Positions 6,904 through 59,604 of a DNA stretch of 64,000 nucleotides are shown piece after piece. Within the stretch, counting starts at the first letter, position 1. Every line of letters begins with the position of its first letter. Source of the DNA: Eledone cirrhosa (lineage: Eukaryota). The stretch lies in NCBI GenBank assembly GCA_964016885.1, contig OZ024744.1, positions 104,594,001-104,658,000 of the forward strand, read 5' to 3'. The notes beneath the pieces were generated by a model. The model did no database searches. It was not told the DNA's origin and saw only the letters and a list, made by a program, of their open reading frames with translations. A program made the position numbers and the translations under genes.

Positions 6904-7077
6904 TTAATCCTAACCCCAGAGGAAAATTATCTCCGCCAGTCAATAATCAGAACTCCTGTATATGAGATCTCAAAGAAGTGTATAAATTATACTAATTTAA
7001 AGTAGTAAATAAACAAAAGTATCATAAAAAATGAAAAAATATATATATACATACTCACAAAAATTAATTCCTGTATG

Positions 7078-10000
7078 GGCAGAGTCAGGTAGACGAGGTA
7101 ACAGTGATATTGTCACATGTGGTGCAATGGTAGAGTCTGGTAGATGAGGTAACAGTGATATTGTCACATGTGGTGTAATGGCAGAGTTTGGTAGACGAGG
7201 TAACAGTGATATTGTCACATGTGGTGTAATGGTAGAGTCTGGTAGACGAGGTAACAGTGATATTGTCACATGTGGTGTAATGGTAGAGTCTGGTAGACGA
7301 GGTAACAGTGATATTGTCACATGTGGTGTAATGGCAGAGTTTGGTAGACGAGGTAACAGTGATATTGTCACATGTGGTGTAATGGCAGAGTCTGGTAGAC
7401 GAGGTAACAGTGATATTGTCACATGTGGTGTAATGGCAGAGTCTGGTAGACGAGGTAACAGTGATATTGTCACATGTGGTGTAATGGTAGAGTCTGGTAG
7501 ACGAGGTAACAGTGATATTGTCACATGTGGTGTAATGGCAGAGTTTGGTAGACGAGGTAACAGTGATATTGTCGCATGTGGTGTAATGGTAGAGTCTGGT
7601 GTAGACGAGGTAACAGTGATATTGTCACATGTGGTGTAATGGTAGAGACTGGTAGACGAGGTAACAGTGATATTGTCACATGTGGTGTAATGGCAGAGTC
7701 TGGTAGACAAGGTAACAGTGATATTGTCACATGTGGTGTAATGGTAGAGTCTGGTAGACGAGGTAACAGTGATATTGTCACATGTGGTGTAATGGCAGAG
7801 TCTGGTAGACGAGGTAACAGTGATATTGTCACATGTGGTGTAATGGCAGAGTTTGGTAGACGAGGTAACAGTGATATTGTCACATGTGGTGTAATGGCAG
7901 AGTCTGGTAGACGAGGTAACAGTGATATTGTCACATGTGGTGTAATGGCAGAGTCTGGTAGACGAGGTAACAGTGATATTGTCACATGTGGTGTAATGGT
8001 AGAGTCTGGTAGACGAGGTAACAGTGATATTGTCACATGTGGTGTAATGGCAGAGTTTGGTAGACGAGGTAACAGTGATATTGTCGCATGTGGTGTAATG
8101 GTAGAGTCTGGTAGACGAGGTAACAGTGATATTGTCACATGTGGTGTAATGGTAGAGTCTGGTAGACGAGGTAACAGTGATATTGTCACATGTGGTATAA
8201 TGGCAGAGTCTGGTAGACGAGGTAACAGTGATATTGTCACATGTGGTGTAATGGTAGAGTCTGGTAGACGAGGTAACAATGATATTGTCACATGTGGTGT
8301 AATGGCAGAGTCTGGTAGACGAGGTAACAGTGATATTGTCACATGTGGTGTAATGGTAGAGTCTGGTAGACGAGGTAACAGTGATATTGTCACATGTGGT
8401 ATAATGGCAGAGTCTGGTAGACGAGGTAACAGTGATATTGTTACATGTGGTGTAATGGCAGAGTTTGGTAGACGAGGTAACAGTGATATTGTCACATGTG
8501 GTGTAATGGCAGAGTCTGGTAGACGAGGTAACAGTGATATTGTCACATGTGGTGTAATGGTAGAGTCTGGTGTAGACGAGGTAACAGTGATATTGTCACA
8601 TGTGGTGTAATGGTAGAGTCTGGTAGACGAGGTAACAGTGATATTGTCACATGTGGTGTAATGGCAGAGTCTGGTAGACAAGGTAACAGTGATATTGTCA
8701 CATGTGGTGTAATGGTAGAGTCTGGTAGACGAGGTAACAGTGATATTGTCACATGTGGTGTAATGGCAGAGTCTGGTAGACGAGGTAACAGTGATATTGT
8801 CACATGTGGTGTAATGGCAGAGTTTGGTAGACGAGGTAACAGTGATATTGTCACATGTGGTGTAATGGCAGAGTCTGGTAGACGAGGTAACAGTGATATT
8901 GTCACATGTGGTATAATGACAGAGTCTGGTAGACGAGGTAACAGTGATATTGTCACATGTGGTGTAATGGTAGAGTCTGGTAGACGAGGTAACAGTGATA
9001 TTGTCACATGTGGTGTAATGGCAGAGTCTGGTAGACGAGGTAACAGTGATATTGTCACATGTGGTGTAATGGTAGAGTCTGGTAGACGAGGTAACAGTGA
9101 TATTGTCACATGTGGTGTAATGGCAGAATTTGGTAGACGAGGTAACAGTGATATTGTCGCATGTGGTGTAATGGTAGAGTCTGGTAGACGAGGTAACAGT
9201 GATATTGTCACATGTGGTGTAATGGTAGAGTCTGGTAGACGAGGTAACAATGATATTGTCACATGTGGTATAATGGCAGAGTCTGGTAGACGAGGTAACA
9301 GTGATATTGTCACATGTGGTGTAATGGTAGAGTCTGGTAGACGAGGTAACAGTGATATTGTCACATGTGGTGTAATGGCAGAGTCTGGTAGACGAGGTAA
9401 CAGTGATATTGTCACATGTGGTGTAATGGTAGAGTCTGGTAGACGAGGTAACAGTGATATTGTCACATGTGGTGTAATGGTAGAGTCTGGTAGACGAGGT
9501 AACAGTGATATTGTTACATGTGGTGTAATGGCAGAGTTTGGTAGACGAGGTAACAGTGATATTGTCACATGTGGTGTAATGGTAGAGTCTGGTAGACGAG
9601 GTAACTGTGATATTGTCACATGTGGTGTAATGGTAGAGTCTGGTAGACGAGGTAACAGTGATATTGTCACATGTGGTGTAATGGCAGAGTCTGGTAGACG
9701 AGGTAACAGTGATATTGTCACATGTGGTATAATGGTAGAGTCTGGTAGACGAGGTAACAGTGATATTGTCACATGTGGTGTAATGGCAGAGTCTGGTAGA
9801 CGAGGTAACAGTGATATTGTCACACGTGGTGTAATGGCAGAGTCTGGTAGACGAGGTAACAGTGATATTGTCACATGTGGTATAATGGTAGAGTCTGGTA
9901 GACGAGGTAACAGTGATATTGTCACATGTGGTGTAATGGCAGAGTTTGGTAGATGAGGTAACAGTGATATTGTCACATGTGGTGTAATGGTAGAGTCTAC

Positions 10001-10845
10001 CAGACTCTGCCATTACACCAATGGCAGAGTTTGGTATACGAGGTAACTGTGATATTGTCACATGTGGTGTAATGGTAGAGTCTGGTAGACGAGGTAACAG
10101 TGATATTGTCACATGTGGTGTAATGGCAGAGTCTGGTAGACGAGGTAACAGTGATATTGTCACATGTGGTATAATGGTTGAGTCTGGTAGCATGTGTTGT
10201 AGAGGCAGAGTTTGGTAGATGAGGTAACAGTGATATTGTCACATGTGGTGTAATGGTAGAGTCTACCAGACTCTGCCATTACACCAATGGCAGAGTTTGG
10301 TATACGAGGTAACTGTGATATTGTCACATGTGGTGTAATGGTAGAGTCTGGTAGACGAGGTAACAGTGATATTGTCACATGTGGTGTAATGGCAGAGTCT
10401 GGTAGACGAGGTAACAGTGATATTGTCACATGTGGTATAATGGTAGAGTCTGGTAGACGAGGTAACAGTGATATTGTCACATGTGGTGTAATGGCAGAGT
10501 CTGGTAGACGAGGTAACAGTGATATTGTCACATGTGGTGTAATGGCAGAGTCTGGTAGACGAGGTAACAGTGATATTGTCACATGTGGTGTAATGGCAGA
10601 GTCTGGTAGACGAGGTAACAGTGATATTGTCACATGTGGTATAATGGTAGAGTCTGGTAGACGAGGTAACAGTGATATTGTCACATGTGGTGTAATGGCA
10701 GAGTTTGGTAGATGAGGTAACAGTGATATTGTCACATGTGGTGTAATGGTAGAGTCTGGTAGACGAGGTAACAGTGATATTGCCACATGTGGCGTAATGG
10801 TAGAGTCTGGTAGACGAGGTAACTGTGATATAGTTACATGTTGTG
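7078..10845. repeat. 51-bp minisatellite (about 73 units)
   Basis: Unit ggtagacgaggtaacagtgatattgtcacatgtggtgtaatggcagagtct. It accounts for the 17-aa-repeat ORFs. Confidence 0.97.
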
Positions 10846-10893
10846 TATCAATATTGCCTGTATTTTCACTCTCTTCAAACAACCTGATTTTAA

Positions 10894-11114
10894 CCCTTTA
10901 GCATTTAAACTGGTCGTATCCGGCTAGAATTCTCTCACTTCTTTCTGTTCAAACTGGCTGTAACTAGCCACTTATACTGATGTTAAGGTATTGTTCTCAA
11001 AATAGATAATATCAAAATCTCATAGATGCAATATTATGTGAGATAATTATGTGAGATAAAGTGTTTACTGTGAAAATACAATAATATATATAGAGCAATG
11101 TAAATGCTTAAGGG
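10894..11114 (+). mobile_element. piggyBac-like MITE with TTAA TSD
   Basis: TTAA|ccctttagcattta...taaatgcttaaggg|TTAA, with TTAA at 10890-10893 and 11115-11118. Confidence 0.9.
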
Positions 11115-12579: not shown

Positions 12580-12848
12580 AGCACATACATCTAGGACCAC
12601 ATACAACACATAAGCAGGTAATACAAACATCTAGGATCACATACAACACAATCAGGTAATACATACATCTAGGACCACATTCAACACATAAGGAGGTAAT
12701 ACACACATCTAGGACCACATACAACACACAAGCAGGTAATACATACAGCTGGGACCACATGCAATACATAAGCAGGTAATACATACATCTAGGACTACAT
12801 ACAACACACAGGCAGGTAATACATACATCTAGGACCAAATACAACACA
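12580..12848. repeat. 40-bp minisatellite inside the hAT
   Basis: Unit acatacatctaggaccacatacaacacataagcaggtaat, about 6.5 copies. Confidence 0.9.
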
Positions 12849-13903
12849 TTGTATCATGTGCTACGGACGACGCAAGAGCAATGGTCGGCCAACATAAGAG
12901 CTTCGGCACTCTTCTGAAGAGAGAAAATCTATCTGTATTTGTTGTTCATTGTGTCATTCATCGACAACACTTGGCTGCAAAGAAATTCAGCAAGCCTCTG
13001 AGCAAGTCCTTGCAGGTGGCCATTGATGTCATCAATTTTATCAAACGGCATTCCCTCAATGAACGAATTTTCAAGCAACTATGCCAAGATAATGACGAAG
13101 AATTCGTCAAGTTGCTCCTTCATACTGAAGTGAGGTGGCTTTCAAAGGGCAAGTGCTTTACTCACTTCTTTCAACTCTTCGACTCTATCATTGAGTTTCT
13201 GCGAGGACGCAACACAGAACTGTACAAGAAAACCCTCGATGTGAGGCAAGATTGCGCCTACCTCACCAACATCTTCGACAAATGCAATAGTGTCATTTTG
13301 GCTTTGCAGGGGAAGAAGATCACCTTGCTTAAAGCAAGGAATGCTGTGAAAACATTCCTGGCCAAATTGAATGTCATCGAAAGGAATCTTTGTTGACGGG
13401 AATTCTATAATTTTCCTAGTGTCGCCAATGTTCAAAACATTGTAAGCGATGACCAACTCCAAATTTATACCACTCACCTCCATGCGCTACAAGACAACAT
13501 GAGAGAACGGTTTGTCAACCCTTTGCCGATGGACATCCTAATGTAAATAGCAAATGCTTTCATAGCTAATGTCGACGATTTGGACGTTAAATTTCAGGAA
13601 GAATTAATTGAACTTCAAGCAGATGAAATTAGATTTCCCAAAATAGGTGAACTCCTTTTTGGGATGCAAGAGGAAATTCAGCGTTGATTTCCACACCTAC
13701 ATGCAGAGGCTAAGAGATTTGCTCTGCCTTTTCCAAGCTCATACTTAGTCGAGAGGAGGTTTGGTGTTGTTTCCAGACTGCACAGTAAGGCTCGCAACCG
13801 CTACAATATAATTACACATGGAGATCTCTGGCTACATCTTAGGAAAATCCAGCCTCACGTCAAAGAGTTAGCTAGACTCCATAAAGTTCAAGGGTCCCAT
13901 TGA
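12848..13903 (+). pseudogene. hAT transposase pseudogene, C-terminal half (ZBED/SCAND3/Buster-like)
   Basis: Motifs CATDDARAM, HCVIHRQHL, LLHTEVRWLSKG, FPSSYLVER and terminal GSH*. In-frame stop at 13394-13396; N-terminus missing. Confidence 0.9.
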
Positions 13904-16165: not shown

Positions 16166-17698
16166 TCACCCCCATTAGATTCTACCCCCCCCCCCCTCAC
16201 ACACACATACATCATGAAATAAGAGAGAAAAAATTGCTCATACACATATTTTCCAAATATTCATGATTGAAAGTCACCACTGATGCTTTGCTCTGTTTTT
16301 TTTTTAATTTCTCATCACAAAGGGACCTGTGACAGACAGGCTGAAGCACCCCCCCCCCCCCACACACACACGTGTGCATTTTTATATATACACTCTCACA
16401 CTACACACACACTCTCTAAAATCATATTCCAAAAAGAGAATTTATTTTACAACCCTGCTGTTGTCAATCCCATAGAATTTGTCTCTAGCTTACAATTCCC
16501 ACCCCGCCTCGCCACCCCCATCTGAACTCTTGACCAGTCCATTAACACAATTGAGGTACACACACATATTTACAGGATATTTCCATTGTCCCAATAAACA
16601 ATTTTGTTCTGTGAAGAAACACAACTACCACCACTGCTGCTGCTGTTACTACCATGACTACCTCTCTCTATATACATGAGAGTTCATTTTCCAGTCTCCT
16701 TCTCAACAAGGAAGATGAAAAAAAACTTACCCCTTAATTTTAAATCTTTAATTTTTAGTTTTTAATTCTTATTAATTCTTTTTAATTGTAATACTCAACA
16801 TTTGATAAGATGAATTTTAATAATACATCGAAACCAGTAATACTTTATATACTTTATATACATTATAAAACTCTTTTTTAAAAGAATTGTCCCTCTCATT
16901 TTTACAATAATGTCACTTTGACGAATCAAAGAAAGGAAAAAAAAAGAAAAACAGATCCTAAAATATATTTTCCGTGCTATTTCCAACTTCATCTTTTCTC
17001 TATAATCACTGTTTTGTATAGAACCTTTTCTAATATATATATATATGGGTGATATCCAATTTTAGCGGCCTAAATGCTGCTTACTTGCTGTAGTTGCTGC
17101 TTACTTCAATGTATGAGGCTATTCCAACAAATTTACATTCCCCTTTTTTTAGCCGTTAAAAGAAATATAGATTTATTTATTGTTTTTTTTTTTGCGATTT
17201 ATTTGCCACTGGCGCATAGATTTCTTTATTTGCCCCTTTTTTGTTTGTTTGTTTGTTTGTTTTTTTGCGATTTATTAGCCTTTTGGGGTCACACACACCC
17301 CCGTAGAAAGTGTGCGACCTTTCTGCCAGGGAGCACAGAGAGAGGGGGGTACTCCCTTCTTCTCTTACCTGTACAAGCCGATATAGAGAGATGGCCCACT
17401 TATACGGGCCATTATTGCTACTTTCACCCATCTTTCATGGAATTGGCTGGGACTGAGTGCCTTTTTCTCCACCGTGATCCTTCTTTTGAAGTGGTATCGG
17501 AAGAAGAGGACCATTTGTTGGCCGGCGACATATCCCCACAGTTTCCTCGTTGCAAACGCATCTGGGACATTTCTTTTCCAAGGGGTTTCCGTCCCGGAAT
17601 CCGTGTCTGTAGAGCCTTTCCCAAACGGGCAGGGCCCCTCGGTATAATAGTAAGTATTAGTGGTTGTAATAAAAATGCAATCAAAATGTAATAAATAC

Positions 17699-17834
17699 CT
17701 TCACTGATTTCTTTCCTTATATTATCAACAGAAGTTGGTATGTCACCCAAAGTTCGCTTTGTATGTTCCCGAATAGCAGTGAATTTTGATAAAACTGTTT
17801 CTAATTCCTTCTCCACAGTAAGATAAATATCCAT
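17699..17834 (-). pseudogene. RMND5: Captured RMND5/GID2 first coding exon (left-arm copy)
   Basis: MDIYLTVEKELETVLSKFTAIREHTKRTLGDI resembles the RMND5A/B N-terminus (MDxCVTVERELEKVLHKF). It is followed by a GT donor, with no later exons seen. Confidence 0.75.
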
Positions 17835-18007
17835 GTGTAGTTGAAGAGGATAAGTATGAAAGAACAGTCATTTAAATTTACAGATGGACAGATGTGGTGT
17901 TTGGCAGGGTTTGAGATATATAGAAAAATAATTATTTACAGAAAAAGAAAATAATAATAAAGAATTATTATAATTTTTTTAAAGATTTATATCTTTTTGG
18001 ACTACAC

Positions 18008-18143
18008 ATGGATATTTATCTTACTGTGGAGAAGGAATTAGAAACAGTTTTATCAAAATTCACTGCTATTCGGGAACATACAAAGCGAACTTTGGGTGAC
18101 ATACCAACTTCTGTTGATAATATAAGGAAAGAAATCAGTGAAG
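18008..18143 (+). pseudogene. RMND5: Captured RMND5/GID2 first coding exon (right-arm copy)
   Basis: 45 codons plus 1 nt, then donor GAAG|gtattt at 18144. Same peptide as the left copy. Confidence 0.75.
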
Positions 18144-18197
18144 GTATTTATTACATTTTGATTGCATTTTTATTACAACCACTAATACTTACTATTA

Positions 18198-18600
18198 TAC
18201 CGAGGGGCCCTGCCCGTTTGGGAAAGGCTCTACAGACACGGATTCCGGGACGGAAACCCCTTGGAAAAGAAATGTCCCAGATGCGTTTGCAACGAGGAAA
18301 CTGTGGGGAGATGTTGCCGGCCAACAAATGGTCCTCTTCTTCCGATACCACTTCAAAAGAAGGATCACGGTGGAGAAAAAGGCACTCAGTCCCAGCCAAT
18401 TCCATGAAAGATGGGTGAAAGTAGCAATAATGGCCCGTGTAAGCGGGCCATCTCTCTATATCGGCTTGTACAGGTAAGAGAAGAAGGGAGTACCCCCCTC
18501 TCTCTGTGCTCCCTGGCAGAAAGGTCGCACACTTTCTACAGGGGTGTGTGTGACCCCAAAAGGCTAATAAATCGCAAAAAAACAAACAAACAAACAAAAA
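18198..18600 (+). mobile_element. L1/Tx1 LINE 3' end, internally deleted (mirror copy at about 17235-17644 on minus)
   Basis: YRGALPVWERLYRHG...CPRCVCNEETV (zf-RVT-like), then FFRYHFKRRITVEKKALSPSQFHERWVKVA, then aataaa and an A-rich tail. Confidence 0.75.
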
Positions 18601-18764
18601 AGGGGCAAATAAAGAAATCTATATTTCTTTTAACGGCTAAAAAAAGGGGAATGTAAATTTGTTGGAATAGCCTCATACATTGAAGTAAGCAGCAACTACA
18701 GCAAATAAGCGGCATTTAGGCCGCTAAAATTGGATATCACCCATATATGTGTATGTGTGTGTGT

Positions 18765-20562
18765 AGTTGATAGTTGACAGTTTCTGTTATCTGGGTGACC
18801 AAATTAGAAGTGGAGGTGGGTGTTCTGAAAATACAACAGCCCAAGTGAGAACAGGATGGGAAAAGTTCAGGGAGCTACCACTACTAGCTACAAAGAGTTT
18901 TTTCCTCAAAATAAAAGGCAGATTCTATGAAGCCTGTGTACAAACAGCAATGTTACATGGAAGTGAGACCCGGGAACTGTTAGAAAGAAATGAAGCTTGC
19001 ATGCTCCAATGGATGTGTAATGGTAATGTGTATGAACAACAAAGCAACAAAGAACTGAGAAAGAAACTGGACATAAGAGGGGTCAGATGCAGTGTGTAGG
19101 AGAGGAGATTGCAGTGGTATGAATGTGTGATGTGTATGAAGGATGACAATTGTATAGAAAGATGCAGGGGGTTTGAAGTTGAAGGAAATTATGGAAGTGG
19201 AAGACCTAGGATGGAGTAATAATTACTGACATTGCACAATTACACCTCACAAAGTAGATGACACAGGATTGAGATCTCTGTCATTATTCTGTACTGCAGA
19301 AGACCTACCTTTCCCTGTACACAGGATGAAACACCAATCGTCTAGCCCTCCCCTATTCACTTTCCCTAGTCTTAAAACCCCACCCTCACCAACTAAATAT
19401 ACCACTCACCTTATCCATGTCCAACATACATACTCATTCCCCTCCCCACCTTCCACATTCCTCAGATACCCTTCCTGTCCTGTTCAAACCATACATACAA
19501 GAATGGAAAGCTGGACATGCTCCAAATCTGCTCTCCCTTCTCCCATAATGCTGCTGCTTTGACAAAAAAGTACTTAATCCACCCTGCATAGCGATCTGGT
19601 GCCATAACAATAAAAGTACCCAGTCCATCCTGTAAAGTGATCGCACTGGTAACATGACAAAAGGCAGCACCCAATCCACCCTATAAGGTGGTTGTGTTTG
19701 TAACATGACAGGAGACCCCCAGTCCACCCTGTATTGAGGTCATGCTGGTGACGCAAGAGAAAGTACCCAGTCCATCCTGTAAAGTGATCGCACTGGTAAC
19801 ATGACAAAAGGCAGCACCCAATCCACCCTATAAGGTGGTTGTGTTTGTAACATGACAGGAGACCCCCAGTCCACCCTGTATTGAGGTCATGCTGGTGACG
19901 CAAGAGAAAGTACCCAGTCCATCCTGTAAAGTGATCGCATTGGTAACATGACAAAAGGCAGCACCCAATCCACCCTGTAAGGTGGTTGTGTTTGTAACAT
20001 GACAGGAGACCCCCAGTCCACCCTGTATTGAGGTCATGCTGGTGATGCAAGAGAAAGTACCCAGTACATCCTGTAAAGTGATCGCATTGGTAACATGACA
20101 AAAGGGAGCACCCAATCCACCCTGTAAGGTGGTTGTGTTTGTAACATGACAGGAGACCCCCAGTCCACCCTGTATTGAGGTCATGCTGGTGACGCAAGAG
20201 AAAGTACCCAGTCCATCCTGTAAAGTGATCGCACTGGTAACATGACAAAAGGCAGCACCCAATCCCCCCCTGTAAGGTGGTTGTGTTTGTAACATGACAG
20301 GAGACCCCCAGTCCAGCCTATAAAGTGTTCAAGCTGGTGACATGAAAAAAACCCCAGTCCACAATATAAAGCACCCAGTCCACACTATAAGGTGGTTAGT
20401 GTTAGGAAGGGCATCCAGCCATAGAGACCAAGCCAGAAACAGTTCTGTATGAGCAAGACAGTCACCTAACCTGACTTGTCTCACAATGGGACAACTTGTC
20501 TATCCCATGCCAGTGTGGAAACATGGAAATTAAACAGTGATGATGATAATGATGATGATGAT
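18765..20562 (+). mobile_element. RTE LINE 3' fragment (RT C-terminus, 3' UTR with expanded repeat, (gat)n tail)
   Basis: VDSFCYLGD...GWEKFREL...AMLHGSET; the 3' UTR ends aggaagggcatccagcc...gatgatgat. Confidence 0.85.
19610..20390. repeat. 147-bp tandem repeat made of three ~49-bp subunits within the RTE 3' UTR
   Basis: cagtccatcc recurs at 19621, 19768, 19915. Confidence 0.9.
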
Positions 20563-34934: not shown

Positions 34935-34971
34935 TTAAAATTGAACCCAATTACTGGCAGAACTGTGTGAA
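34935..34971 (-). CDS. NECAP: NECAP last coding exon, (S)SHSSASNWVQF*
   Basis: Acceptor atttttcag at 34972-34980. Its phase-2 start matches the upstream donor. It ends in WVQF-stop, the NECAP WXXF-acidic AP-2 alpha-ear-binding motif. Confidence 0.9.
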
Positions 34972-35055
34972 CTGAAAAATATAAATGGAATATATTTCAT
35001 TATTTAGAGTGCCAAATATGTACAATATACATGGAATATCTATAATTATTTAAAC

Positions 35056-36086: not shown

Positions 36087-39000
36087 ACTAGCTGCAGTAC
36101 CCGGTAATACCCAGGAAAGGTGGGGTTATTCCTAGTTCCCAGAGTGCACCTGAAAATGCCCATACTGGATTTTCAATAGCAACCTTTGCTAGGTATGTTT
36201 ATGGCAGATCAATTTTTTGTGTTGAACTATCAATAGTTGTTTAAGTCACAAGTCCTTCTTCCATCCAGCTTTCTTCATTCAGAGTGAATAAGTTAGGGAA
36301 GTTTGAGCTCAAAGAGTATCAAACTTAATCAACAAACTTATGTATAAGAATAGCAAACTTACTGCCTTAGCACTCAAGAACAAACACAGAACAATTGAGG
36401 AAGTCATCGCAATTATTAAAGAAATTATAACCGAGTGAACATATTCAGGTACTGTTCTAGCACCCTGTATATCACCGTTTGTAAAGCCCTTCGAATGACT
36501 GAAGCAATTCAATAAAACCATCCCATTTTCCCCTATAGTAGACATAACCCGAGAAAACACACCATAATAAGTCGAATAAACAATCAGAAGTGTTGGCCCT
36601 AAAGAGGGCCTTGTAACATTCACTGTTGCAAAGTGTCAATAATGGCGGAGAAGTTACATCTGCTTAATTCGTGGTAAGGTTAACACGATCCAACACCTCG
36701 AAATATCGACAAAATAAACTCTACTATCAAAGACAGCATGTCGGGAGTAAGAATATTCGTCAACATACAATTTAGGTTTTATTCTTTGGACTAATCTCAT
36801 GGTAAGCCAACTTCCAGGTCATTGATCATCTCACTTTGTTGTAACTTATCACTGATTCCTGCAGTTGACCTTAATGTCATCTATGCGTGTGCATGTGTTC
36901 AGAATTCACATCAGTGGATGTGATATATTTATCATCATCATCGTTTAATGTCTATCATCCACGCTAGCATGGGTTAGGCGGGAATTGTCCCACTTGAGGC
37001 AAGATTGGTTGGGTGACCGTGTCTCGCTCGTATAGGACTATCTGGCAGGTTTTCTACAGCTGGATGCCCTTCCTAACACAAGCCACATTTACAGTGTGGG
37101 ACTGGGAGGTTTTTTACAGCGTGGACTGTGTGTTTTTTTGTTGTGACACTTACACGACCTCATTAGTTTGGACTGGATGTTGTGGTACCAACATAACTTT
37201 ATAGAGAAAGGGTAGTGTTGGTGGGAGTGGAAGGATGGAGTAGGGGCAGTGGGTTGGGGTGTGTATTTGGTTTGGAGGGGCCTCTGACTGTAGGTTAACT
37301 TTGCACGTAGGGAAGGCAGGTCTTCTGTATTATTGTGTGGCGCCAAAGATCCCGATCCAGTAACATTGTCTTAGAAAGGTGTAAGTGTGCAAGGTCGGAA
37401 TTTATCATGTCATCCCAGGTTTTTCTGGGTCTACCTACTCCGTAATTTCCATCAATTTTGATCGCCTTACACTTTTTTATACAGCTGTCGTCTTTCATGC
37501 GCATCACATGGCCATACCAACGTAGTCTTCTCTTGAGTAAACAGCATCTGATCCCTCTTATTCCTAATTTCTCACTTAGTTTATTTATGCTTTGCCGTTC
37601 ACGTATATTACTATTACACATCCAATGGAACATACATGCTTCGTTCCTTTCCAGTCTGCGCAGGTCCTCTGCACACAATGCCCATGTCTCAGTGCCATGT
37701 AACATTGCTGTTCGTATACAGGCATCATACAATCTGCCTTTCATTTTCAGAGAGAAACCTTTTGTGGCCAACAGAGGTATTAGCTCTCTGAACTTTTTCC
37801 ATCCCGTTCTGACTCTAGCTACTGTACTTTCAGAGCACCCTCCACCACTGCTGATTTTGTCACCCAGGTAACGGAAAGTGTCCACTATCTCTATGGAACC
37901 ATCTGGGCAGTAGAAGGAGCTAGTTTCCTGTGGGCACTTGATACTTATTGCACCTGAACATCGGCCACATATAAAATCTATGTTCTTAGATAGCTTGCCT
38001 GTGATCCCACTACATCTTTTATTACCCATAGTTAGCATTTGGGGTATAGAATGGAATTTCTACCTACTCCTTTCCTACTCACTGAGCATGGCCATTTTCC
38101 AGAGGGCACCTGTGCTCTATTTTCATCTCTACATACCAGAACTTTAGTCTTAGACAAGTTAATTTTAAGGCCTTTTGATTCTAGGCCATGCTTCCATGTT
38201 TGGAATTTCTTCTCTAGTTCAGCCATAGATTCAGATATGAGAGTTAGATCATCTGCATATAGAAGTTCCCATGGGCAGCCAGTCTTAAACTCCTCTGTTA
38301 TAGCCTGTAGGACAATAATAAACAGGAGGGGGATAAGGACGGAGTCTTGATGAACACCTACTTTTACACTAAATTCTTCACTATATTCCATTGTTAATTC
38401 TAACCTTGCTGACTGTTTCTTTATACGTGGCTTGTATAGCTCTCAAAAGCCATTCATCTACTCCTAGTTTTCTAAGGGCCCACCAGATAATGGAGTGCAG
38501 GACTCTGTCAAAGGCTTTCTCCAAGTCAACAAAAGCTAAGTAGAGGGGTTTTAGCTAGGTACTTCTCCTGTAATTGTCATACAAGGAAAAGAGCATCTGT
38601 AGTACTTTTACCTGATACAAACCCAAACTGCATTTCATCTAGATCAATTCGATCTCTGATTAGTTGTGCTATAACTATTTCTGTGACTTTCATGACCTGG
38701 TCAACTAACTTAATGCCTCTATAGTTACCCCTATCTAGAGCATCTCCTTTATACTTGTAGCAGTTAACAATGATGCTGCTATGCCAGTCCTTTGGTATGA
38801 CCCCATTCTGTATCACTTGGTTTACTATCTGAGTGAGCATTGTATGTCCTATCATTCCAGATGTTTTCAACATCTCAGAAGGCCCAGCTGCCTTGCCTGT
38901 CTTCATATCTTTGATTGCCTTACTTATTATACTACCTTTAACTTGCACCGCTGGTCCCACTATTGGATCGATTTGGGGCAGACTATCTTTTTCACATTTA

Positions 39001-39689
39001 TTCTCCTCATTTAATAGTCTCTCGAAGTGACACTGCCAAGCTACCTTCTTATCAGTATCAGTGAGGGCAAGTATGCCATCATCGTTAAGTACACACTTCT
39101 CCCCGACAATATCACGGTTTTCCTTGACACATTGTCTTGCGATCCTGAACACCTCACGTTTTTGGTCTTCGCATTGTAGAATGTGCTTGAACTTTCTATC
39201 CTCTGCTTCCCTTCTTGCAAAGTACACTTGTCTCCTAGCTTCTCGCCTGGCCACTTGATAGTGTTCTCTATTTCCCTCATCAGGCCATTCTTTCCAAGCC
39301 TGCTTTTTTACCTTAATTGTCTCCTCCACCTTACTGTTCCACCACCAAGTTACTCTCCCCCTGCCAATAGGTCTGCTCCAGCCACAGATTTCATCCGTTG
39401 CTTTCAGCAGGTTCACTTTCAAGAATTGCCACTGTTCCTCTATATTGCACGTCTCTAATTGCTCTTCCTTACTGTCAAAAGCATCAAGTAATAAGCTTTT
39501 AAATTTGTTACTGACTGTGGGGTCCTTCAACTTCCATATTCTTCTCCTCAAAGTTGTCCTCCTCTGTTGTCGAGTATGTCTAGTCCCGACTATAAGGTCA
39601 CTAACTATTAGGCTATGTTGGGAGGTGCATTCTTCACGGGGGGAGAGACTTAGTGTTTACAACAGACACTCTGTCACATCTTCTAGTAA

Positions 39690-40640: not shown

Positions 40641-40738
40641 GGGCGGGTATTCCGTAAAACTACACAGTTATTTATACAATTGTAAATAATATATGATAAT
40701 GTCTTAAATAAAATACACTTGATGTAATCCTTTCTTAC

Positions 40739-41115
40739 CTTGTAAAGTCACCCCAGCCAGAATCTACTAATGTATTATTAGCTGCACCAGATGCATTATT
40801 TAAAGGAGATAGAATTTTGCTAGATGAATCAGTTCTGCTAGCAGTTGTGTCTGCTGCAAATTTGGTGTTTGTGCTCAAATCACACAACAAATCGTCAATG
40901 GAAGAGACAGGTGATGTCATATTATTTGGAATGTTTTCATGACTTCCTTGATTGGCTGTTACTTTTGTATGATTTACTGAGCTTGATGTTTGATGATTAC
41001 CACCACCAGGTGGAGGCATTATTTTCATATTAGGACCTGGGGGTGGTGGCAGCAATCCTCCTGCAGTACCTTGTCCTTTTGAGCGTTGTTTAGACCCACT
41101 TTCGTTGCGTTTTAC
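40739..41115 (-). CDS. NECAP: NECAP penultimate coding exon (VKRNESGSKQRSKGQGTAGGLLPPPPG...IDDLLCDL...SGWGDFT)
   Basis: Acceptor tattttag at 41116-41123 and donor AG|gtaaga at 40738. The GLLPPPPG, DLL and WGDF (gamma-ear-binding) motifs appear in NECAP order. Confidence 0.9.
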
Positions 41116-42166
41116 CTAAAATAAAAGAGTAAAAATGTTTTATCAACACATTTTCTTCACCTTGAAAAAAACCGTTTTTGCATGAAGAATATTAAAATAA
41201 ACAGTCATGTCATTTTCAATGGTTGCATATCCAAAATAATATATAAGATAAAGAAGGTTTTAAAACATTGCATTAATCATATGTCAATAATATTAGCTGA
41301 GTATGGGGGTTGTATGTGTTCCTCTTAGCTATTTCAAAACTGTATTTCTAATGAGATACACTCTATTTCAATTAATTAAAGAATATTGAGCAAATTACCA
41401 AAATGATTAACCTTAACTATAATAAAGAAATGAGTGTGGGATTGCGTCCAGAATATATTTTTTTACCTCGTTTGTAAAATAAATTGGATTACTTTGGATA
41501 AATAATGAATGAATATTACATAATTTATCTGCTAAATTTCATGGCTGTTGATTAAATATATTTTATAGCTTATTTAAAGATCTTTAAAATTTTCAAATGT
41601 CAACACTTCCGGTTAGCGGCCGTTATATTATATAAATATCGCATATATTTCCATCGCTAATTTTCTCCTAATGCAGTTTATATATAATATCATCTTTTTT
41701 AATGTCTCATGGATTATGTTACTGATTACATAAGACAGTGTAACACAGTCTTCATTCATTTTTCGGTTTATATTGTCAATTACGATTTTATTTGATGTAT
41801 CATATCTACATGCATATATATTTGTGTATAATATCAATATACACACTACACATGCTAGCAGAAAAACCACCCATGGGGTGCTTTTTCTGCTAGTTATTAT
41901 AATACAAAGTTTTTGCTATCAAGCAAAGAATTTTAACTATAAAATAGTTGAAATAGATTGGGGCATAGTCCTGGGGGTAGAAAAAGGTGGATAAGAGTGG
42001 TTTTGATTAAGTTGGTATCAAAAGAAGGTTTAAAATGGGTGGTTTGAACCAAGGTGGTATAGAAAATGTTAAGAGAAAGGAGTAGCTGGAGCTGAAAGTG
42101 AGAGAGTTGCAGTGGATTAAAATACAGAGAGGAAACCAGAAAGGAGATGTTACTATTAATCATTTC

Positions 42167-45100
42167 AATACTAAACTGTCTGAAACTGCCCCTGGTACTA
42201 AACTGTCTAAAACTGACCCTGGTACTAAACTGTCTGAAACTGCCCCTGGTACTAAACTGTCTAAAACTGACCCTGGTACTAAACTGTCTGAAACTGCCCC
42301 TGGTACTAAACTGTCTAAAACTGCCCCTGATACTAAACTGTCTGAAACTGCCCCTGGTACTAAACTGTCTAAAACTGCCCCTGGTACTAAACTGTCTGAA
42401 ACTGCCCCTGGTACTAAACTGTCTGAAACTGCCCCTGGTACTAAACTGTCTGAAACTGCCCCTGGTAGTAAACTGTCTGAAACTGCCCCTGGTACTAAAC
42501 TGTCTGAAACTGCCCCTGGTACTAAACTGTCTGAAACTGCCCCTGGTACTAAACTGTCTAAAACTGCCCCTGGTACTAAACTGTCTAAAACTGCCCCTGG
42601 TACTAAACTGTCTAAAACTGCCCCTGGTACTAAACTGTCTGAAACTGCCCCTGGTACTAAACTGTCTAAAACTGCCCCTGGTACTAAACTGTCTGAAACT
42701 GCCCCTGGTACTAAACTGTCTGAAACTGCCCCTGGTACTAAACTGTCTAAAACTGCCCCTGATACTAAACTGTCTGAAACTGCCCCTGGTACTAAACTGT
42801 CTGAAACTGCCCCTGGTACTTAACTGTCTGAAACTGCCCCGGTACTAAACTGTCTAAAACTGCCCCTGGTACTAAACTGTCTAAAACTGCCCCTGGTACT
42901 AAACTGTCTAAAACTGCCCCTGGTACTAAACTGTCTGAAACTGCCCCTGGTACTAAACTGTCTGAAACTGCCCCTGGTACTAAACTGTCTAAAACTGCCC
43001 CTGGTACTAAACTGTCTAAAACTGACCCTGGTACTAAACTGTCTGAAACTGCCCCTGGTACTAAACTGTCTAAAACTGCCCCTGATACTAAACTGTCTGA
43101 AACTGCCCCTGGTACTAAACTGTCTAAAACTGCCCCTGGTACTAAACTGTCTGAAACTGCCCCTGGTACTAAACTGTCTGAAACTGCCCCTGGTACTAAA
43201 CTGTCTAAAACTGCCCCTGGTACTAAACTGTCTGAAACTGCCCCTGGTACTAAACTGTCTGAAACTGCCCCTGGTACTAAACTGTCTGAAACTGCCCCTG
43301 GTACTAAACTGTCTGAAACTGACCCTGGTACTAAACTGTCTGAAACTGCCCCTGGTACTAAACTGTCTGAAACTGCCCCTGGTACTAAACTGTCTAAAAC
43401 TGCCCCTGGTACTAAACTGTCTAAAACTGACCCTGGTACTAAACTGTCTAAAACTGCCCCTGGTACTAAACTGTCTGAAACTGCCCCTGGTACTAAACTG
43501 TCTAAAACTGCCCCTGGTACTAAACTGTCTAAAACTGCCCCTGGTACTAAACTGTCTGAAACTGCCCCTGGTACTAAACTGTCTGAAACTGCCCCTGGTA
43601 CTAAACTGTCTAAAACTGCCCCTGGTACTAAACTGTCTAAAACTGCCCCTGGTACTAAACTGTCTAAAACTGCCCCTGGTACTAAACTGTCTGAAACTGC
43701 CCCTGGTACTAAACTGTCTGAAACTGCCCCTGGTACTAAACTGTCTAAAACTGCCCCTGGTACTAAACTGTCTGAAACTGCCCCTGGTACTAAACTGTCT
43801 AAAACTGCCCCTGGTACTAAACTGTCTGAAACTGCCCCTGGTACTAAACTGTCTAAAACTGCCCCTGGTACTAAACTGTCTAAAACTGCCCCTGGTACTT
43901 AACTGTCTAAAACTGACCCTGGTACTAAACTGTCTAAAACTGCCCCTGGTACTAAACTGTCTAAAACTGACCCTGGTACTAAACTGTCTAAAACTGCCCC
44001 TGGTACTAAACTGTCTGAAACTGCCCCTGGTACTTAACTGTCTAAAACTGACCCTGGTACTAAACTGTCTGAAACTGCCCCTGGTACTAAACTGTCTAAA
44101 ACTGACCCTGGTACTAAACTGTCTAAAACTGACCCTGGTACTAAACTGTCTAAAACTGACCCTGGTACTAAACTGTCTAAAACTGCCCCTGGTACTAAAC
44201 TGTCTGAAACTGACCCTGGTACTAAACTGTCTAAAACTGACCCTGGTACTAAACTGTCTGAAACTGCCCCTGGTACTAAACTGTCTAAAACTGACCCTGG
44301 TACTAAACTGTCTAAAACTGACCCTGGTACTAAACTGTCTAAAGCTGCCCCTGGTACTAAACTGTCTGAAACTGCCCCTGGTACTAAACTGTCTGAAACT
44401 GCCCCTGGTACTAAACTGTCTGAAACTGCCCCTGATACTAAACTGTCTAAAACTGCCCCTGGTACTAAACTGTCTAAAACTGCCCCTGGTACTAAACTGT
44501 CTGAAACTGCCCCTGGTACTAAACTGTCTGAAACTGCCCCTGGTACTAAACTGTCTGAAACTGCCCCTGGTACTAAACTGTCTAAAACTGCCCCTGGTAC
44601 TAAACTGTCTAAAACTGCCCCTGGTACTAAACTGTCTGAAACTGCCCCTGGTACTAAACTGTCTGAAACTGCCCCTGGTACTAAACTGTCTGAAACTGCC
44701 CCTGGTACTAAACTGTCTAAAACTGCCCCTGGTACTAAACTGTCTAAAACTGCCCCTGGTACTAAACTGTCTGAAACTGCTCCTGGTACTAAACTGTCTG
44801 AAACTGCCCCTGGTACTAAACTGTCTAAAACTGCCCCTGGTACTAAACTGTCTAAAACTGCCCCTGGTACTAAACTGTCTAAAACTGCCCCTGGTACTAA
44901 ACTGTCTGAAACTGCCCCTGGTACTAAACTGTCTGAAACTGCCCCTGGTACTAAACTGTCTAAAACTGCCCCTGGTACTAAACTGTCTGAAACTGCCCCT
45001 GGTACTAAACTGTCTAAAACTGCCCCTGGTACTAAACTGTCTGAAACTGCCCCTGGTACTAAACTGTCTAAAACTGCCCCTGGTACTAAACTTTCTAAAA

Positions 45101-47600
45101 CTGCCCCTGGTACTAAACTGTCTGAAACTGCCCCTGGTACTAAACTGTCTAAAACTGACCCTGGTACTAAACTGTCTAAAACTGACCCTGGTACTAAACT
45201 GTCTAAAGCTGCCCCTGGTACTAAACTGTCTGAAACTGCCCCTGGTACTAAACTGTCTGAAACTGCCCCTGGTACTAAACTGTCTGAAACTGCCCCTGAT
45301 ACTAAACTGTCTAAAACTGCCCCTGGTACTAAACTGTCTAAAACTGCCCCTGGTACTAAACTGTCTGAAACTGCCCCTGGTACTAAACTGTCTGAAACTG
45401 CCCCTGGTACTAAACTGTCTGAAACTGCCCCTGGTACTAAACTGTCTAAAACTGCCCCTGGTACTAAACTGTCTAAAACTGCCCCTGGTACTAAACTGTC
45501 TGAAACTGCCCCTGGTACTAAACTGTCTGAAACTGCCCCTGGTACTAAACTGTCTGAAACTGCCCCTGGTACTAAACTGTCTAAAACTGCCCCTGGTACT
45601 AAACTGTCTAAAACTGCCCCTGGTACTAAACTGTCTGAAACTGCTCCTGGTACTAAACTGTCTGAAACTGCCCCTGGTACTAAACTGTCTAAAACTGCCC
45701 CTGGTACTAAACTGTCTAAAACTGCCCCTGGTACTAAACTGTCTAAAACTGCCCCTGGTACTAAACTGTCTGAAACTGCCCCTGGTACTAAACTGTCTGA
45801 AACTGCCCCTGGTACTAAACTGTCTAAAACTGCCCCTGGTACTAAACTGTCTGAAACTGCCCCTGGTACTAAACTGTCTAAAACTGCCCCTGGTACTAAA
45901 CTGTCTGAAACTGCCCCTGGTACTAAACTGTCTAAAACTGCCCCTGGTACTAAACTTTCTAAAACTGCCCCTGGTACTAAACTTTCTAAAACTGCCCCTG
46001 GTACTTAACTCTCTAAAACTGACCCTGGTACTAAACTGTCTAAAACTGCCCCTGGTACTAAACTGTCTAAAACTGACCCTGGTACTAAACTGTCTAAAAC
46101 TGCCCCTGGTACTAAACTGTCTGAAACTGCCCCTGGTACTTAACTGTCTAAAACTGACCCTGGTACTAAACTGTCTGAAACTGCCCCTGGTACTAAACTG
46201 TCTAAAACTGACCCTGGTACTAAACTGTCTAAAACTGACCCTGGTACTAAACTGTCTAAAACTGACCCTGGTACTAAACTGTCTAAAACTGCCCCTGGTA
46301 CTAAACTGTCTGAAACTGACCCTGGTACTAAACTGTCTAAAACTGACCCTGGTACTAAACTGTCTGAAACTGCCCCTGGTACTAAATTGTCTAAAACTGA
46401 CCCTGGTACTAAACTGTCTAAAACTGACCCTGGTACTAAACTGTCTAAAACTGCCCCTGGTACTAAACTGTCTGAAACTGCCCCTGGTACTAAACTGTCT
46501 AAAACTGCCCCTGGTACTTAACTGTCTAAAACTGACCCTGGTACTAAACTGTCTAAAACTGCCCCTGGTACTAAACTGTCTAAAACTGCCCCTGGTACTA
46601 AACTGTCTAAAACTGCCCCTGGTACTAAACTGTCTAAAACTGCCCCTGGTACTAAACTGTCTGAAACTGCCCCTGATACTAAACTGTCTAAAACTGCCCC
46701 TGGTACTAAACTGTCTAAAACTGCCCCTGGTACTAAACTGTCTAAAACTGCCCCTGGTACTAAACTGTCTGAAACTGCCCCTGGTACTAAACTGTCTGAA
46801 ACTGCCCCTGGTACTAAACTGTCTAAAACTGCCCCTGGTACTAAACTGTCTGAAACTGACCCTGGTACTAAACTGTCTAAAACTGCCCCTGGTACTAAAC
46901 TGTCTAAAACTGCCCCTGGTACTAAACTGTCTAAAACTGCCCCTGGTACTAAACTGTCTGAAACTGTCTAAAACTGCCCCTGGTACTAAACTGTCTAAAA
47001 CTGACCCTGGTACTAAACTGTCTAAAACTGCCCCTGGTACTAAACTGTCTGAAACTGCCCCTGGTACTAAACTGTCTGAAACTGCCCCTGGTACTAAACT
47101 GTCTGAAACTGCCCCTGGTACTAAACTGTCTGAAACTGCCCCTGGTACTAAACTGTCTGAAACTGCCCCTGGTACTAAACTGTCTAAAACTGCCCCTGGT
47201 ACTAAACTGTATGAAACTGTCTAAAACTGACCCTGGTACTAAACTGTCTAAAACTGACCCTGGTACTAAATTGTCTAAATCTGCCCCTGGTACTAAATTG
47301 TCTAAAACTGCCCCTGATACTAAACTGTCTGAACTGTCTCTGGTACTAAGCTGTCTGAAACTGTCTTTGGTACTAAACTGTCTGAAACTATCCCTGGTAC
47401 TAAACTGTCTGAAACTATCCCTGGTACTAAACTGTCTGAAACTATCCCTGGTACTAAACTGTCTGAAACTATCCCTGGTACTAAACTGTCTCTGGTACTA
47501 AACTGTCTGAAACTGTCTCTGGTACTAAACTGTCTGAAACTGTCTGTGGTACTAAACTGTCTGAAACTGCCCCTGGTACTAAACTATCTAAAACTGTCTC
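42167..47600. repeat. 27-bp minisatellite (about 200 units) in a NECAP intron
   Basis: Unit ggtactaaactgtctgaaactgcccct. Confidence 0.97.
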
Positions 47601-55626: not shown

Positions 55627-58492
55627 TGTATTGTTGTAATAATGAGGCTATATTTCTATTGTACCTGTGTATTGTTGTAATAATGAAGCTATATTTCTAT
55701 TGTACCTGTGTATTGTTGTGATGATGAAGCTATATTTCTATTGTACCTGTGTATTGTGTGTTGTAATAATGAGGCTATATTTCTATTGTACCTGTGTATT
55801 GTTTGTTGTAATAATGAAGCTATATTTCTATTGTACCTGTGTATTGTTGTAATAATGAAGCTATATTTCTATTGTACCTGTGTATTGTGTGTTGTAATAA
55901 TGAAGCTATATTTCTATTGTACCTGTGTATTGTTGTGATGATGAAGCTATATTTCTATTGTACCTGTGTATTGTTTGTTGTAATAATGAAGCTATATTTC
56001 TATTGTACCTGTGTATTGTGTGTTGTAATAATGAAGCTATATTTCTATTGTACCTGTGTATTGTTTGTTGTAATAATGAAGCTATATTTCTATTGTACCT
56101 GTGTATTGTTGTGATGATGAAGCTATATTTCTATTGTACCTGTGTATTGTTGTAATAATGAAGCTATATTTCTATTGTACATGTGTATTGTGTGTTGTAA
56201 TAATGAAGCTATATTTCTATTGTACCTGTGTATTGTTTGTTGTAATAATGAGACTATATTTCTATTGTACCTGTGTATTGTTGTAATAATGAAGCTATAT
56301 TTCTATTGTACCTGTGTATTGTTGTAATAATGAAGCTATATTTCTATTGTACCTGTGTATTGTTGTAATAATGAAGCTATATTTCTATTGTACCTGTGTA
56401 TTGTTTGTTGTAATAATGAAGCTATATTTCTATTGTACCTGTGTATTGTTGTAATAATGAGGCTATATTTCTATTGTACCTGTGTATTGTTTGTTGTGAT
56501 AATGAGGCTATATTTCTATTGTACCAGTGTATTGTTTGTTGTAATAATGAGGCTATATTTCTATTGTACCTGTGTATTGTTTGTTGTAATAATGAGGCTA
56601 TATTTCTATTGTACCTGTGTATTGTTGTAATAATGAAGCTATATTTCTATTGTACCTGTGTATTGTTTGTTGTAATAATGAAGCTATATTTCTATTGTAC
56701 CTGTGTATTGTTTGTTGTAATAATGAGGCTATATTTCTATTGTACCTGTGTATTGTTTGTTGTGATAATGAGGCTATATTTCTATTGTACCTGTGTATTG
56801 TAATAATGAAGCTATATTTCTATTGTACCTGTGTATTGTTTGTTGTAATAATGAAGCTATATTTCTATTGTACCTGTGTATTGTTTGTTGTAATAATGAA
56901 GCTATATTTCTATTGTACCTGTGTATTGTTTGTTGTAATAATGAGGCTATATTTCTATTGTACCTGTGTATTGTTTGTTGTAATAATGAGGCTATATTTC
57001 TATTGTAACTGTGTATTGTTGTAATAATGAGGCAATATTTCTATTGTACCTGTGTATTGTTGTAATAATGAGGCTATATTTCTATTGTACCTGTGTATTG
57101 TTGTGATAATGAGGCTATATTTCTATTGTACCTGTGTATTGTTGTAATAATGAGGCTATATTTCTATTGTACCTGTGTATTGTTGTAATAATGAGGCAAT
57201 ATTTCTATTGTACCTGTGTATTGTTTGTTGTAATAATGAGGCTATATTTCTATTGTACCTGTGTATTGTTGTAATAATGAGGCTATATTTCTATTGTACC
57301 TGTGTATTGTTTGTTGTAATAATGAGGCTATATTTCTATTGTACCTGTGTATTGTGTGTTGTAATAATGAAGCTATATTTCTATTGTACCTGTGTAGTTT
57401 GTTGTAATAATGAAGCTATATTTCTATTGTACCTGTGTATTGTTTGTTGTAATAATGAAGCTATATTTCTATTGTACCTGTGTATTGTTTGTTGTAATAA
57501 TGAAGCTATATTTCTATTGTACCTGTGTATTGTTGTAATAATGAAGCTATATTTCTATTGTACCTGTGTATTGTTTGTTGTGATGATGAAGCTATATTTC
57601 TATTGTACCTGTGTATTGTTGTAATAATGAGGCTATATTTCTATTGTACCTGTGTATTGTTTGTTGTAATAATGAAGCTATATTTCTATTGTACCTGTGT
57701 ATTGTTTGTTGTAATAATGAGGCTATATTTCTATTGTACCTGTGTATTGTTTGTTGTGATGATGAAGCTATATTTCTATTGTACCTGTGTATTGTTTGTT
57801 GTGATAATGAGGCTATATTTCTATTGTACCTGTGTATTGTTTGTTGTGATAATGAGGCTATATTTCTATTGTACCTGTGTATTGTTTGTTGTAATAATGA
57901 AGCTATATTTCTATTGTACCTGTGTATTGTTTGTTGTGATGATGAAGCTATATTTCTATTGTACCTGTGTATTGTTTGTTGTAATAATGAAGCTATATTT
58001 CTATTGTACCTGTGTATTGTGTGTTGTAATAATGAAGCTATATTTCTATTGTACCTGTGTATTGTTTGTTGTAATAATGAAGCTATATTTCTATTGTACC
58101 TGTGTATTGTTTGTTGTAATAATGAGGCTATATTTCTATTGTACCTGTGTATTGTTTGTTGTGATGATGAAGCTATATTTCTATTGTACCTGTGTATTGT
58201 TTGTTGTGATAATGAGGCTATATTTCTATTGTACCTGTGTATTGTTTGTTGTGATAATGAGGCTATATTTCTATTGTACCTGTGTATTGTTTGTTGTAAT
58301 AATGAAGCTATATTTCTATTGTACCTGTGTATTGTTTGTTGTGATGATGAAGCTATATTTCTATTGTACCTGTGTATTGTTGTAATAATGAGGCTATATT
58401 TCTATTGTACCTGTGTATTGTTGTAATAATGAGGCTATATTTCTATTGTACCTGTGTATTGTTTGTTGTGATGATGAAGCTATATTTCTATT
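55627..58492. repeat. 45/41-bp minisatellite
   Basis: Unit tattgt(ttgt)tgtaataatgaagctatatttctattgtacctgtg, with a 4-bp indel variant. Confidence 0.96.
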
Positions 58493-59600: not shown

Positions 59601-59604
59601 CCAG

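Follow-up and report, generated by a model that had tools for sequence, protein, structure and literature searches.

In plants, cut-and-paste transposons frequently capture genes; in animals such captures are mostly single-copy. Merlin transposons (IS1016/IS1595-related) have 5'-GG ends, target site duplications of 8 or 9 bp and terminal inverted repeats (TIRs) of 24-462 bp, and the available part of the describing paper mentions neither gene capture nor head-to-head dimers for them (PMC8101967). In Octopus vulgaris two recently active Merlin families were annotated, with capture and foldbacks unmentioned in the accessible portion of that repeat annotation (PMC13282606). Intron-retaining capture is the pattern reported for Pack-TIRs (PMC8277862); that study does not mention Merlin in its main text, and in 12 supplementary files the name serves solely as a column heading. 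Multicopy Pack-TIRs, TIR extension and inverted-duplication silencers are each known already, and tandem TIRs as well as inverted-duplication origins of plant MIR genes have been covered (PMC3310237, PMC10004981). In the openly accessible literature we found no publication on a gene-carrying Merlin or on RMND5 capture.

Here we describe a foldback element at positions 17048-18741 of the window, i.e. the whole analysed stretch of 64,000 nucleotides (C28:104,594,001-104,658,000). All genome-wide counts refer to the 3.0-Gb assembly. The element belongs to a young multicopy Pack-Merlin foldback family with its cargo mirrored in both arms. With a probability of roughly 80% we consider it a transposase-less, centrally deleted Merlin with RMND5 exon 1 plus a LINE tail in each arm, an arrangement that probably goes back to head-to-head duplication. 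The following features were annotated:

17040-17047, plus strand: target site duplication, left copy, TATATATG (flank reading; family census)
17048-17841, minus strand: left arm (794 bp), the right half of a cargo-carrying Merlin in inverted orientation (arm alignment)
17048-17167, minus strand: Merlin end with 5'-GG and short subterminal repeats; family form GGCGATATCCAATTTTAG
17168-17276, minus strand: tandem LINE terminal AATAAA units and A-runs; five AATAAA pointing outward
17277-17644, minus strand: 3' end of an L1-type (presumably Tx1) LINE, internally deleted (ORF2 C-terminus, 3' UTR)
17645-17698, minus strand: start of RMND5 intron 1 with GT donor; parent match 48 nt
17699-17834, minus strand: RMND5 exon 1 coding part, left copy, 45 codons plus 1 nt
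17842-18000, minus strand: unpaired spacer, 159 bp
17998-18003, no strand: central deletion junction 18000/18001 with 3-bp ACT microhomology, common to 43 genome places
18001-18741, plus strand: right arm, 741 bp (arm alignment)
18008-18143, plus strand: right copy of the coding part of RMND5 exon 1, differing from the parent at 7 sites
18144-18197, plus strand: GT donor (18144) and intron-derived sequence, 54 nt
18198-18565, plus strand: LINE ORF2 C-terminal remnant, stop 18475-18477, and 3' UTR
18566-18622, plus strand: repeats of the terminal AATAAA unit of the LINE, with the hexamer at 18566 and 18608; 49 + 4 bp shorter than on the left
18623-18741, plus strand: Merlin end, right
18742-18749, plus strand: target site duplication, right copy, CATATATG, 7/8 match

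The foldback was recovered by an inverted-repeat search (612 nt at 98% and 160 nt at 93%) and by arm alignment, which gave 734 matches, 7 substitutions and 53 gap bases, with a longest perfect run of 309 bp and every gap in the right arm. An earlier note on this DNA was right about the palindrome, the few substitutions and the inside-out order of the parts: outwards, each arm has the ATG exon, the GT donor, 54 intron-derived nucleotides, the LINE ORF2 C-terminus with 3' UTR, A-rich repeats and a terminus carrying AAGTAAGCAGCA-like short subterminal repeats. What had been read as an extra tail of ~46 bp in the left arm is a loss of 49 + 4 bp from the right arm (49 bp between two ATAGATTT repeats and one 4-bp unit), since the longer left-arm state is present in less-deleted family copies. 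The unpaired spacer extends the left arm and corresponds to RMND5 sequence upstream of the ATG (in the parent from about C5:79,536,170), with its last ~15 bp being Merlin sequence downstream of the transposase.

Such a foldback is not a product of chance, and a one-off assembly error is unlikely. Contigs of the sequencing runs X1, X4, X5 and X6 cover parts of the element. The lack of a listed read or contig piece spanning the whole window copy would fit a fold-back read chimera, and the one X5 contig that crosses the central junction has only 30 letters on one side, 1 below the rule, and was left uncounted. Nevertheless, we regard this kind of artefact as highly improbable: the arms differ at 7 sites and by the 53 gap bases, the spacer is unpaired, the central junction has 43 genome matches (reversed control 0) and the copies have distinct 8-bp duplications. 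Moreover, 16 of 56 elements with an 8-bp duplication (at most one mismatch) contain this junction, each with a duplication of its own.

The termini are multicopy as had been supposed, with 566 candidate matches genome-wide for the terminal 134 bp and 208 + 216 = 424 exact matches for the terminus motif GGYGATATCCAATTTTAG (reversed control 0). By flank reading, the family ends begin with GG(C/T)G, with a variable base just outside. The window copy starts with GGTG at 17048 and stops with CACC at 18741, and at 17050 it has a C>T change relative to the family form in both ends. While the ~130-bp terminus with subterminal repeats proposed in the earlier note stands, its GGG/CCC ends in an AT site do not, as the outer G and C belong to the 8-bp duplication, which in this copy is 7/8 identical (TATATATG and CATATATG). 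For the family census, 143 merged regions yielded 67 left ends with a facing right end, the best-matching right end being used in nested cases. The 8-bp duplication was exact in 47/67 pairs and had one mismatch in 9/67; the 11/67 pairs with two or more mismatches include some nested or mispaired ends. Exact matches at other lengths were found in 5/67 pairs (2 bp, none AT) and in 1, 1 and 1 pair, respectively.

At least 150 PF12762 matches occur genome-wide, several of them between the same ends as those of the window element. Frames in the copies L117, L120 and L123 lie above the Pfam cut-off (E 6e-8 to 2e-13), and besides PF12762 the frames between these ends contain only a weak IS1595 zinc ribbon. 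An intact transposase with these exact ends was not found among the frames, which comprise 70-283 aa; the longest one (L120, 283 aa) has the D, D and E motifs and an early stop. Because 8-bp duplications occur together with IS1595-type DDE transposase genes flanked by the same ends, the element is a Merlin derivative and not a member of ISL2EU/PIF-Harbinger, as the earlier note had assumed from an AT duplication. ISL2EU is defined by AT duplications and by THAP/HTH/DDE plus YqaJ frames in the available description (PMC4482050). A Pack element of this kind would share the GG at its ends, and the insertion site of the window copy is AT-rich; yet the family duplications are 8 bp long, the AT dinucleotide is never duplicated, the partner transposase is DDE_Tnp_IS1595, and no THAP/HTH/DDE and YqaJ frames were found between these ends, which leaves ISL2EU with a practically negligible probability. 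The 5'-GG start of the TIR, the 8-bp duplication (8 or 9 bp in Merlin), the PF12762 frames between the same ends (all broken), DDE_Tnp_IS1595 in partner copies and internal tandem repeats all agree with the Merlins described so far, whereas the arms of 741-794 bp (up to ~1.8 kb in L117), which contain a host exon and a LINE, exceed the quoted TIR range of 24-462 bp, a descriptive rather than defining range (PMC8101967). The duplication of the right half explains why the arms go beyond it: instead of old TIRs into which cargo came separately, they are most likely two head-to-head copies of this half.

The peptide encoded in the arms had been suspected to be the N-terminus of RMND5/GID2. Direct protein searches with the window peptides against Pfam and a 5.8-billion set (for longer proteins) were blank or weak, and in the PDB RMND5A was matched at E 1.5; the identity was therefore settled via the parent gene. 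The parent of the window exon was found at C5:79,536,336, with 85% amino-acid identity, 9 kb upstream of CTLH exons at C5:79,545,771 and C5:79,547,095, the first of which matches human RMND5A (E 6e-16). The parent exon aligns to RMND5A residues 1-43 (E 5e-4) and matches the N-terminus of P0001, a full-length 401-aa CTLH/RING protein, and it is thus the N-terminus of a protein with CTLH and RING, as expected for RMND5/GID2. The closest named RMND5 protein among the matches is from a gastropod. A mixed loose-end motif search for RMND5 exon 2 returned nothing. Run X6, whose kind is not on record, contains element-type contigs and also a 1435-nt contig which is identical to parent exon 1 and departs at the donor; it was not counted as expression.

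The captured piece comprises ~390 bp in total, namely ~160-170 bp upstream of the ATG, exon 1, the donor and the beginning of intron 1, with 48 nt of the intron matching the parent in the window copy and 85 nt in less-deleted copies. Accordingly, donor, intron start and the RMND5 part of the spacer could all be assigned to the parental locus, a comparison that the earlier note had proposed. Within 180 kb of the parent (C5:79,536,166-79,536,556) no match to the terminus or the LINE tail was found. The 24-nt exon motif has 111 genome matches, the parent included. Compared with the parent, the window exon has 7 nonsynonymous and 0 synonymous changes, six of which are near-fixed in the 86 exon matches of the examined loci. 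Among 69 gap-free copies, the exon variants comprise 37 nonsynonymous and 11 synonymous ones, about the neutral ratio. Judged by these changes, the captured exon is most likely a passenger that drifts neutrally in a selfish element.

The second part of the cargo is the 3' end of an L1-type LINE, as had been claimed. The LINE piece of L123 has lost less sequence, matches zf-RVT with E 2.5e-7 and has 2549 candidate matches in the genome. Over their first 308 bp, the 22 free LINE copies examined show 82-87% similarity, and one free-copy frame contains RVT_1 and zf-RVT, with LINE-1 ORF2 as the nearest PDB structure. The reverse transcriptase nearest to L1 ORF2 and the C-terminal zf-RVT/CCHC place the LINE in the L1 clade; the further label Tx1 is presumed from resemblance and the microsatellite tail. 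The A-rich stretch, described earlier as an A-rich tail, is no poly(A) tail: free copies of the LINE mostly end in GGCAAATAAAGAAAT plus (TCTA)n, and the stretch consists of tandem copies of this AATAAA-bearing end. The left arm has five outward AATAAA, the right arm two.

The start of RMND5 intron 1 and its GT donor are retained, as the earlier note had stressed, which is compatible with intron-retaining capture as in Pack-TIRs, and the RMND5 piece was probably captured at the DNA level. This falls short of proof because RNA chimeras made by LINEs likewise consist of a first exon followed in the same sense by a LINE. Structurally, ~390 bp of RMND5 lie ~70 bp past the transposase frame of a Merlin and are followed by a 5'-truncated LINE in the same sense; the RMND5 piece was probably gained by DNA template switching in gap repair or replication. 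Alternatively, the cargo could be an RNA chimera made by the LINE reverse transcriptase, which would have started on LINE RNA and then switched to, or been joined with, the unspliced RMND5 transcript at its 5' end; insertion of this cassette into a Merlin would leave the later steps unchanged. We regard this route as possible but clearly less probable. It would explain the direct join with ~2 bp of shared AT, the beginning of the RMND5 piece about 160 nt upstream of the ATG and the sense fusion of a gene's 5' end with a 5'-truncated LINE, as in the first-exon chimeras of mRNA and LINE-1. However, the available account of these chimeras describes flanking duplications and joins mostly at splice sites (PMC11838501), whereas here the join lies 85 nt inside intron 1 and not at the donor, and there is no clear target duplication around the cassette, the flanks of which are only loosely alike. 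Moreover, Merlin and RMND5 match imperfectly across AT-rich sequence at the 5' join, as DNA template switching would give, and no free chimera with LINE tail and duplication was found. Two loci considered as free RMND5-LINE retrocopies (L137 and L222) have neither the LINE tail nor a duplication.

How the cargo reached both arms can be followed in related copies. In L123 the unit has the order centre, transposase, ~70 bp, RMND5 piece, LINE piece, tail repeats and end. L117 is a full dimer of 3828 bp with two divergent transposases, two cargo arms, a short spacer and an 8-bp duplication, and L105, L119, L120, L121, L129, L134, L135 and L196 show the same layout with one or both arms partly deleted. 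The palindrome centre is present at 16 genome places, all within this Merlin family. Where the end upstream of the transposase was seen, it is a copy of the right end joined at differing points (mono 70, 122, 124, 127, 153 and others). Independent deletions of a dimer would give such left ends, which points to a dimer that was subsequently deleted, and one inverted duplication followed by many deletions would be the simplest reading of these sequences. Because no distinct original left end was found in the family copies and no cargo-free copy of the exact family among the 40 scored of 192 candidates, the order RMND5, LINE and duplication is tentative. L123 itself was rejected as an ancestral monomer with an original left end, because the 69 bp at its left end are copied from the right end and the joins of other copies lie elsewhere. 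The central ~115-bp inverted repeat was likewise rejected as an independent MITE, its long matches being all in the family (about a dozen 40-bp matches elsewhere aside).

According to our model of head-to-head duplication, the unit would have become a palindrome around a ~90-bp spacer upstream of the transposase and thereby obtained two right ends, a structure represented by the dimers, while the mechanism we propose is conditional. Dimers and deletion derivatives have since moved, each with an 8-bp duplication, presumably by cut-and-paste with transposase from elsewhere. A single deletion, which begins in the Merlin 3' sequence of one arm, ends 7 bp short of the RMND5 ATG in the opposite arm and is joined at ACT, removed both transposase copies, and the product spread to ~43 places including the window. 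Shorter forms of 430-1000 bp that are exon-less are common. The earlier idea of a Pack-like element with variable cargo holds for the multicopy host cargo but not for its variability, as the cargo is mostly fixed and stems from one capture with many deletion derivatives.

The long arms could also have been built up in steps, the left TIR taking in more and more right-end sequence, instead of by one inversion of the whole element. Recruitment of internal sequence by TIRs is known for Galileo, and in a sister family the left end mirrors ~115 bp of the transposase 3' end, which would suit this mode of growth. The extended-TIR copies of Galileo resemble our family in that internal sequence joins the arms, deletion derivatives occur and conversion has been proposed, although Galileo belongs to the P superfamily and recruits its own sequence, not a host exon, in the available part of the report (PMC3573991). 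A single centre is common to all centre-bearing copies, however, and L117, L119, L135 and L196 hold the transposase in both orientations, which needs an inversion past the transposase start, so that we find stepwise extension doubtful and prefer one head-to-head inversion. Both routes have a strand-switch mechanism in common and are hard to tell apart. The sister family is 73% alike, has GGCGATCC ends and 8-bp duplications, is without cargo and includes a single frame of 316 aa that contains D, D and E. Since divergent transposase pairs (L125-L127) also occur in another, unrelated Merlin family, such inversions probably arise repeatedly among the Merlins of this genome.

Compared with other gene-capturing transposons, the family resembles multicopy Pack-TIRs and Ssk-FB4 in carrying a host gene piece with an intron, in its spread to other chromosomes and in its long arms. 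Host sequence lies inside TIR ends, the parent locus is not flanked by this element and unlinked copies have distinct duplications, as in Pack-TIRs. In the accessible part of the Pack-TIR study, however, the cargo is present once between the TIRs, multicopy cases have 3-5 copies in frogs and Ssk-FB4 is coding and selected (PMC8277862), whereas here the cargo forms an inverted pair in both arms, ~110 exon copies exist and the RMND5 exon is neutral. The family extends gene capture to Merlin. It preserves the intermediates, i.e. a full head-to-head dimer, one-arm deletions, transposase-free foldbacks and end-only forms, which show how foldbacks can arise and how cargo reaches both arms.

Any RNA reading through the element would likely fold into a hairpin of ~740 bases; folding predicted 740 long-range pairs, in line with the ~750-bp hairpin anticipated in the earlier note. 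The element is almost identical to its reverse complement, and a transcript entering it from left or right would therefore form nearly the same hairpin, with AATAAA in the far arm; it is predicted to end at the LINE poly(A) signals. Frame inspection found no gene spanning the element in the window. The nearest gene end in the window, at ~34,940 and 16 kb from the element, belongs to a minus-strand gene; this gene has no Pfam match, and from its WGDF and WVQF motifs we take it to be NECAP-like. The repeat content here resembles that of octopus genomes, and cephalopods are known for heavy A-to-I editing. By analogy with Mu killer, an inverted duplication of a DNA transposon end which gives a long hairpin on read-through, a mobile hairpin family with dozens of inverted copies of an E3-ligase first exon, a LINE 3' end and, in its longer members, the transposase might supply double-stranded RNA, ended by LINE poly(A) signals, to siRNA/piRNA pathways or ADAR and dampen RMND5, the LINE and Merlin in trans, an idea we hold to be improbable. 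If true, it would be a self-amplifying, transposable counterpart of Mu killer in an animal genome. The maize original is a single locus with silencing shown in the available text (PMC3440606), whereas our family is dispersed and mobile, has host and LINE cargo and its hairpin is only predicted. Improbable, too, is that the family owes its persistence to hairpins which control RMND5 or silence both the LINE and Merlin itself. The predicted long-range pairs and dimers such as L117, which invert their own transposase gene in a layout like that of Mu killer (PMC3440606, available text), would agree with such a role. On the other hand, exact matches of the paired exon part to the parent are limited to 9/123 21-mers and 0/116 28-mers, exon copies drift neutrally, many derivatives are without the exon and the nearest window gene end is that far off, which favours a selfish element with a neutral passenger. 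In any case, ~40 near-identical loci with a predicted 740-bp hairpin that match a conserved host gene form a testable set, and if there is no RNA effect, the family is a clean case of transposon anatomy.

Finally, we compared the arms of 14/16 window-type elements with the tail region masked; L225 and L004 were dropped due to half-deleted, poorly aligned arms. The distance between the two arms within a copy was 1.30% compared with 1.83% between left and right arms of different copies (permutation p 5e-5, 14 elements), and between-copy distances were 1.78% for left-left and 1.86% for right-right. The two arms of a copy are thus homogenised in part, probably through repair that now and then draws on the other arm, although read polishing of palindromes could mimic some of this effect. 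Homogenisation appears to be only occasional, as 92/108 copy-private variants occur in one arm only and 16/108 (3 at CpG) in both. The arms depart ~1% from the column majority, and the burst is therefore young. In the window copy the six departures from the column majority, at 17050, 17351, 17474, 17487, 17623 and 17824, are each present in both arms.

Head-to-head transposase pairs with long arms also occur in a second Merlin family, whose ends differ from those of the RMND5-carrying family and for which an 8-bp duplication was found at the locus L127. At a further locus, L128, the transposase pair is convergent. In a sister Merlin family that lacks cargo, the left TIR is a mirror of the family's own transposase 3' end, and one of its copies (L185) holds an open frame of 316 aa with D, D and E. 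The loci, on contigs of the same assembly, are as follows.

C28:102,763,000-102,765,600, second Merlin family (L125)
C1:45,540,000-45,543,000, second Merlin family (L126)
C4:282,846,971-282,849,807, second Merlin family (L127)
C6:10.315 Mb, cargo-free sister family (L183)
C1:230.557 Mb, cargo-free sister family (L185)

Several copies of the RMND5-carrying family contain extra sequence. The spacer of a copy with the same central deletion junction as the main element is interrupted by a 3-kb insert (L130:2215-5175), a Helitron-like sequence which includes a PIF1 helicase frame and has CTAG at its end. At L133:1860-3311 and L219:1214-2763 the family ends, with good duplications, enclose 1.4-1.5 kb that may represent second cargos or later insertions. 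Another copy, L131:1249-2340, consists only of the family ends and about ten tandem units of about 72 bp derived from the terminal AATAAA region of the LINE, and is possibly a proto-satellite. Members of the family were moreover found nested within other members, several with 8-bp duplications of their own:

L121:2063-2680, nested insertion
L220:1054-2597 and 1464-2240, nested insertions
L134:1529, nested insertion
L047:2742, nested insertion

Four RMND5 exon copies each carry the parent-type base at one diagnostic site, namely exon position 38 in L010, L116 and L121 and position 97 in L232. Either the parental base may have been regained by recurrent mutation, or a short tract may have been converted by the parent. 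Exon 1 of the RMND5 gene itself is preceded, at a distance of 6-10 kb, by minus-strand frames that presumably belong to a Ty3-like LTR retrotransposon (G000:C5:79,526,600-79,530,800; L078-L079).

The window holds further features, listed below; Pfam gave no match for the NECAP-like last exons and none at E 0.01 for the 187-aa frame.

12833-13396, plus strand, 187-aa frame, by resemblance presumably a hAT-type transposase fragment
40735-41115 and about 34940-34975, minus strand, the final exons of a gene that we take to be NECAP-like from its WGDF and terminal WVQF motifs
37295-39656, minus strand, broken LINE reverse transcriptase frames, assumed to be RTE-like
19466-20347, 7000-10900, 42000-47500, 56400-58400 and 59600-63700, a 147-bp five-copy array (subunits of 48-51 bp) and several long minisatellites
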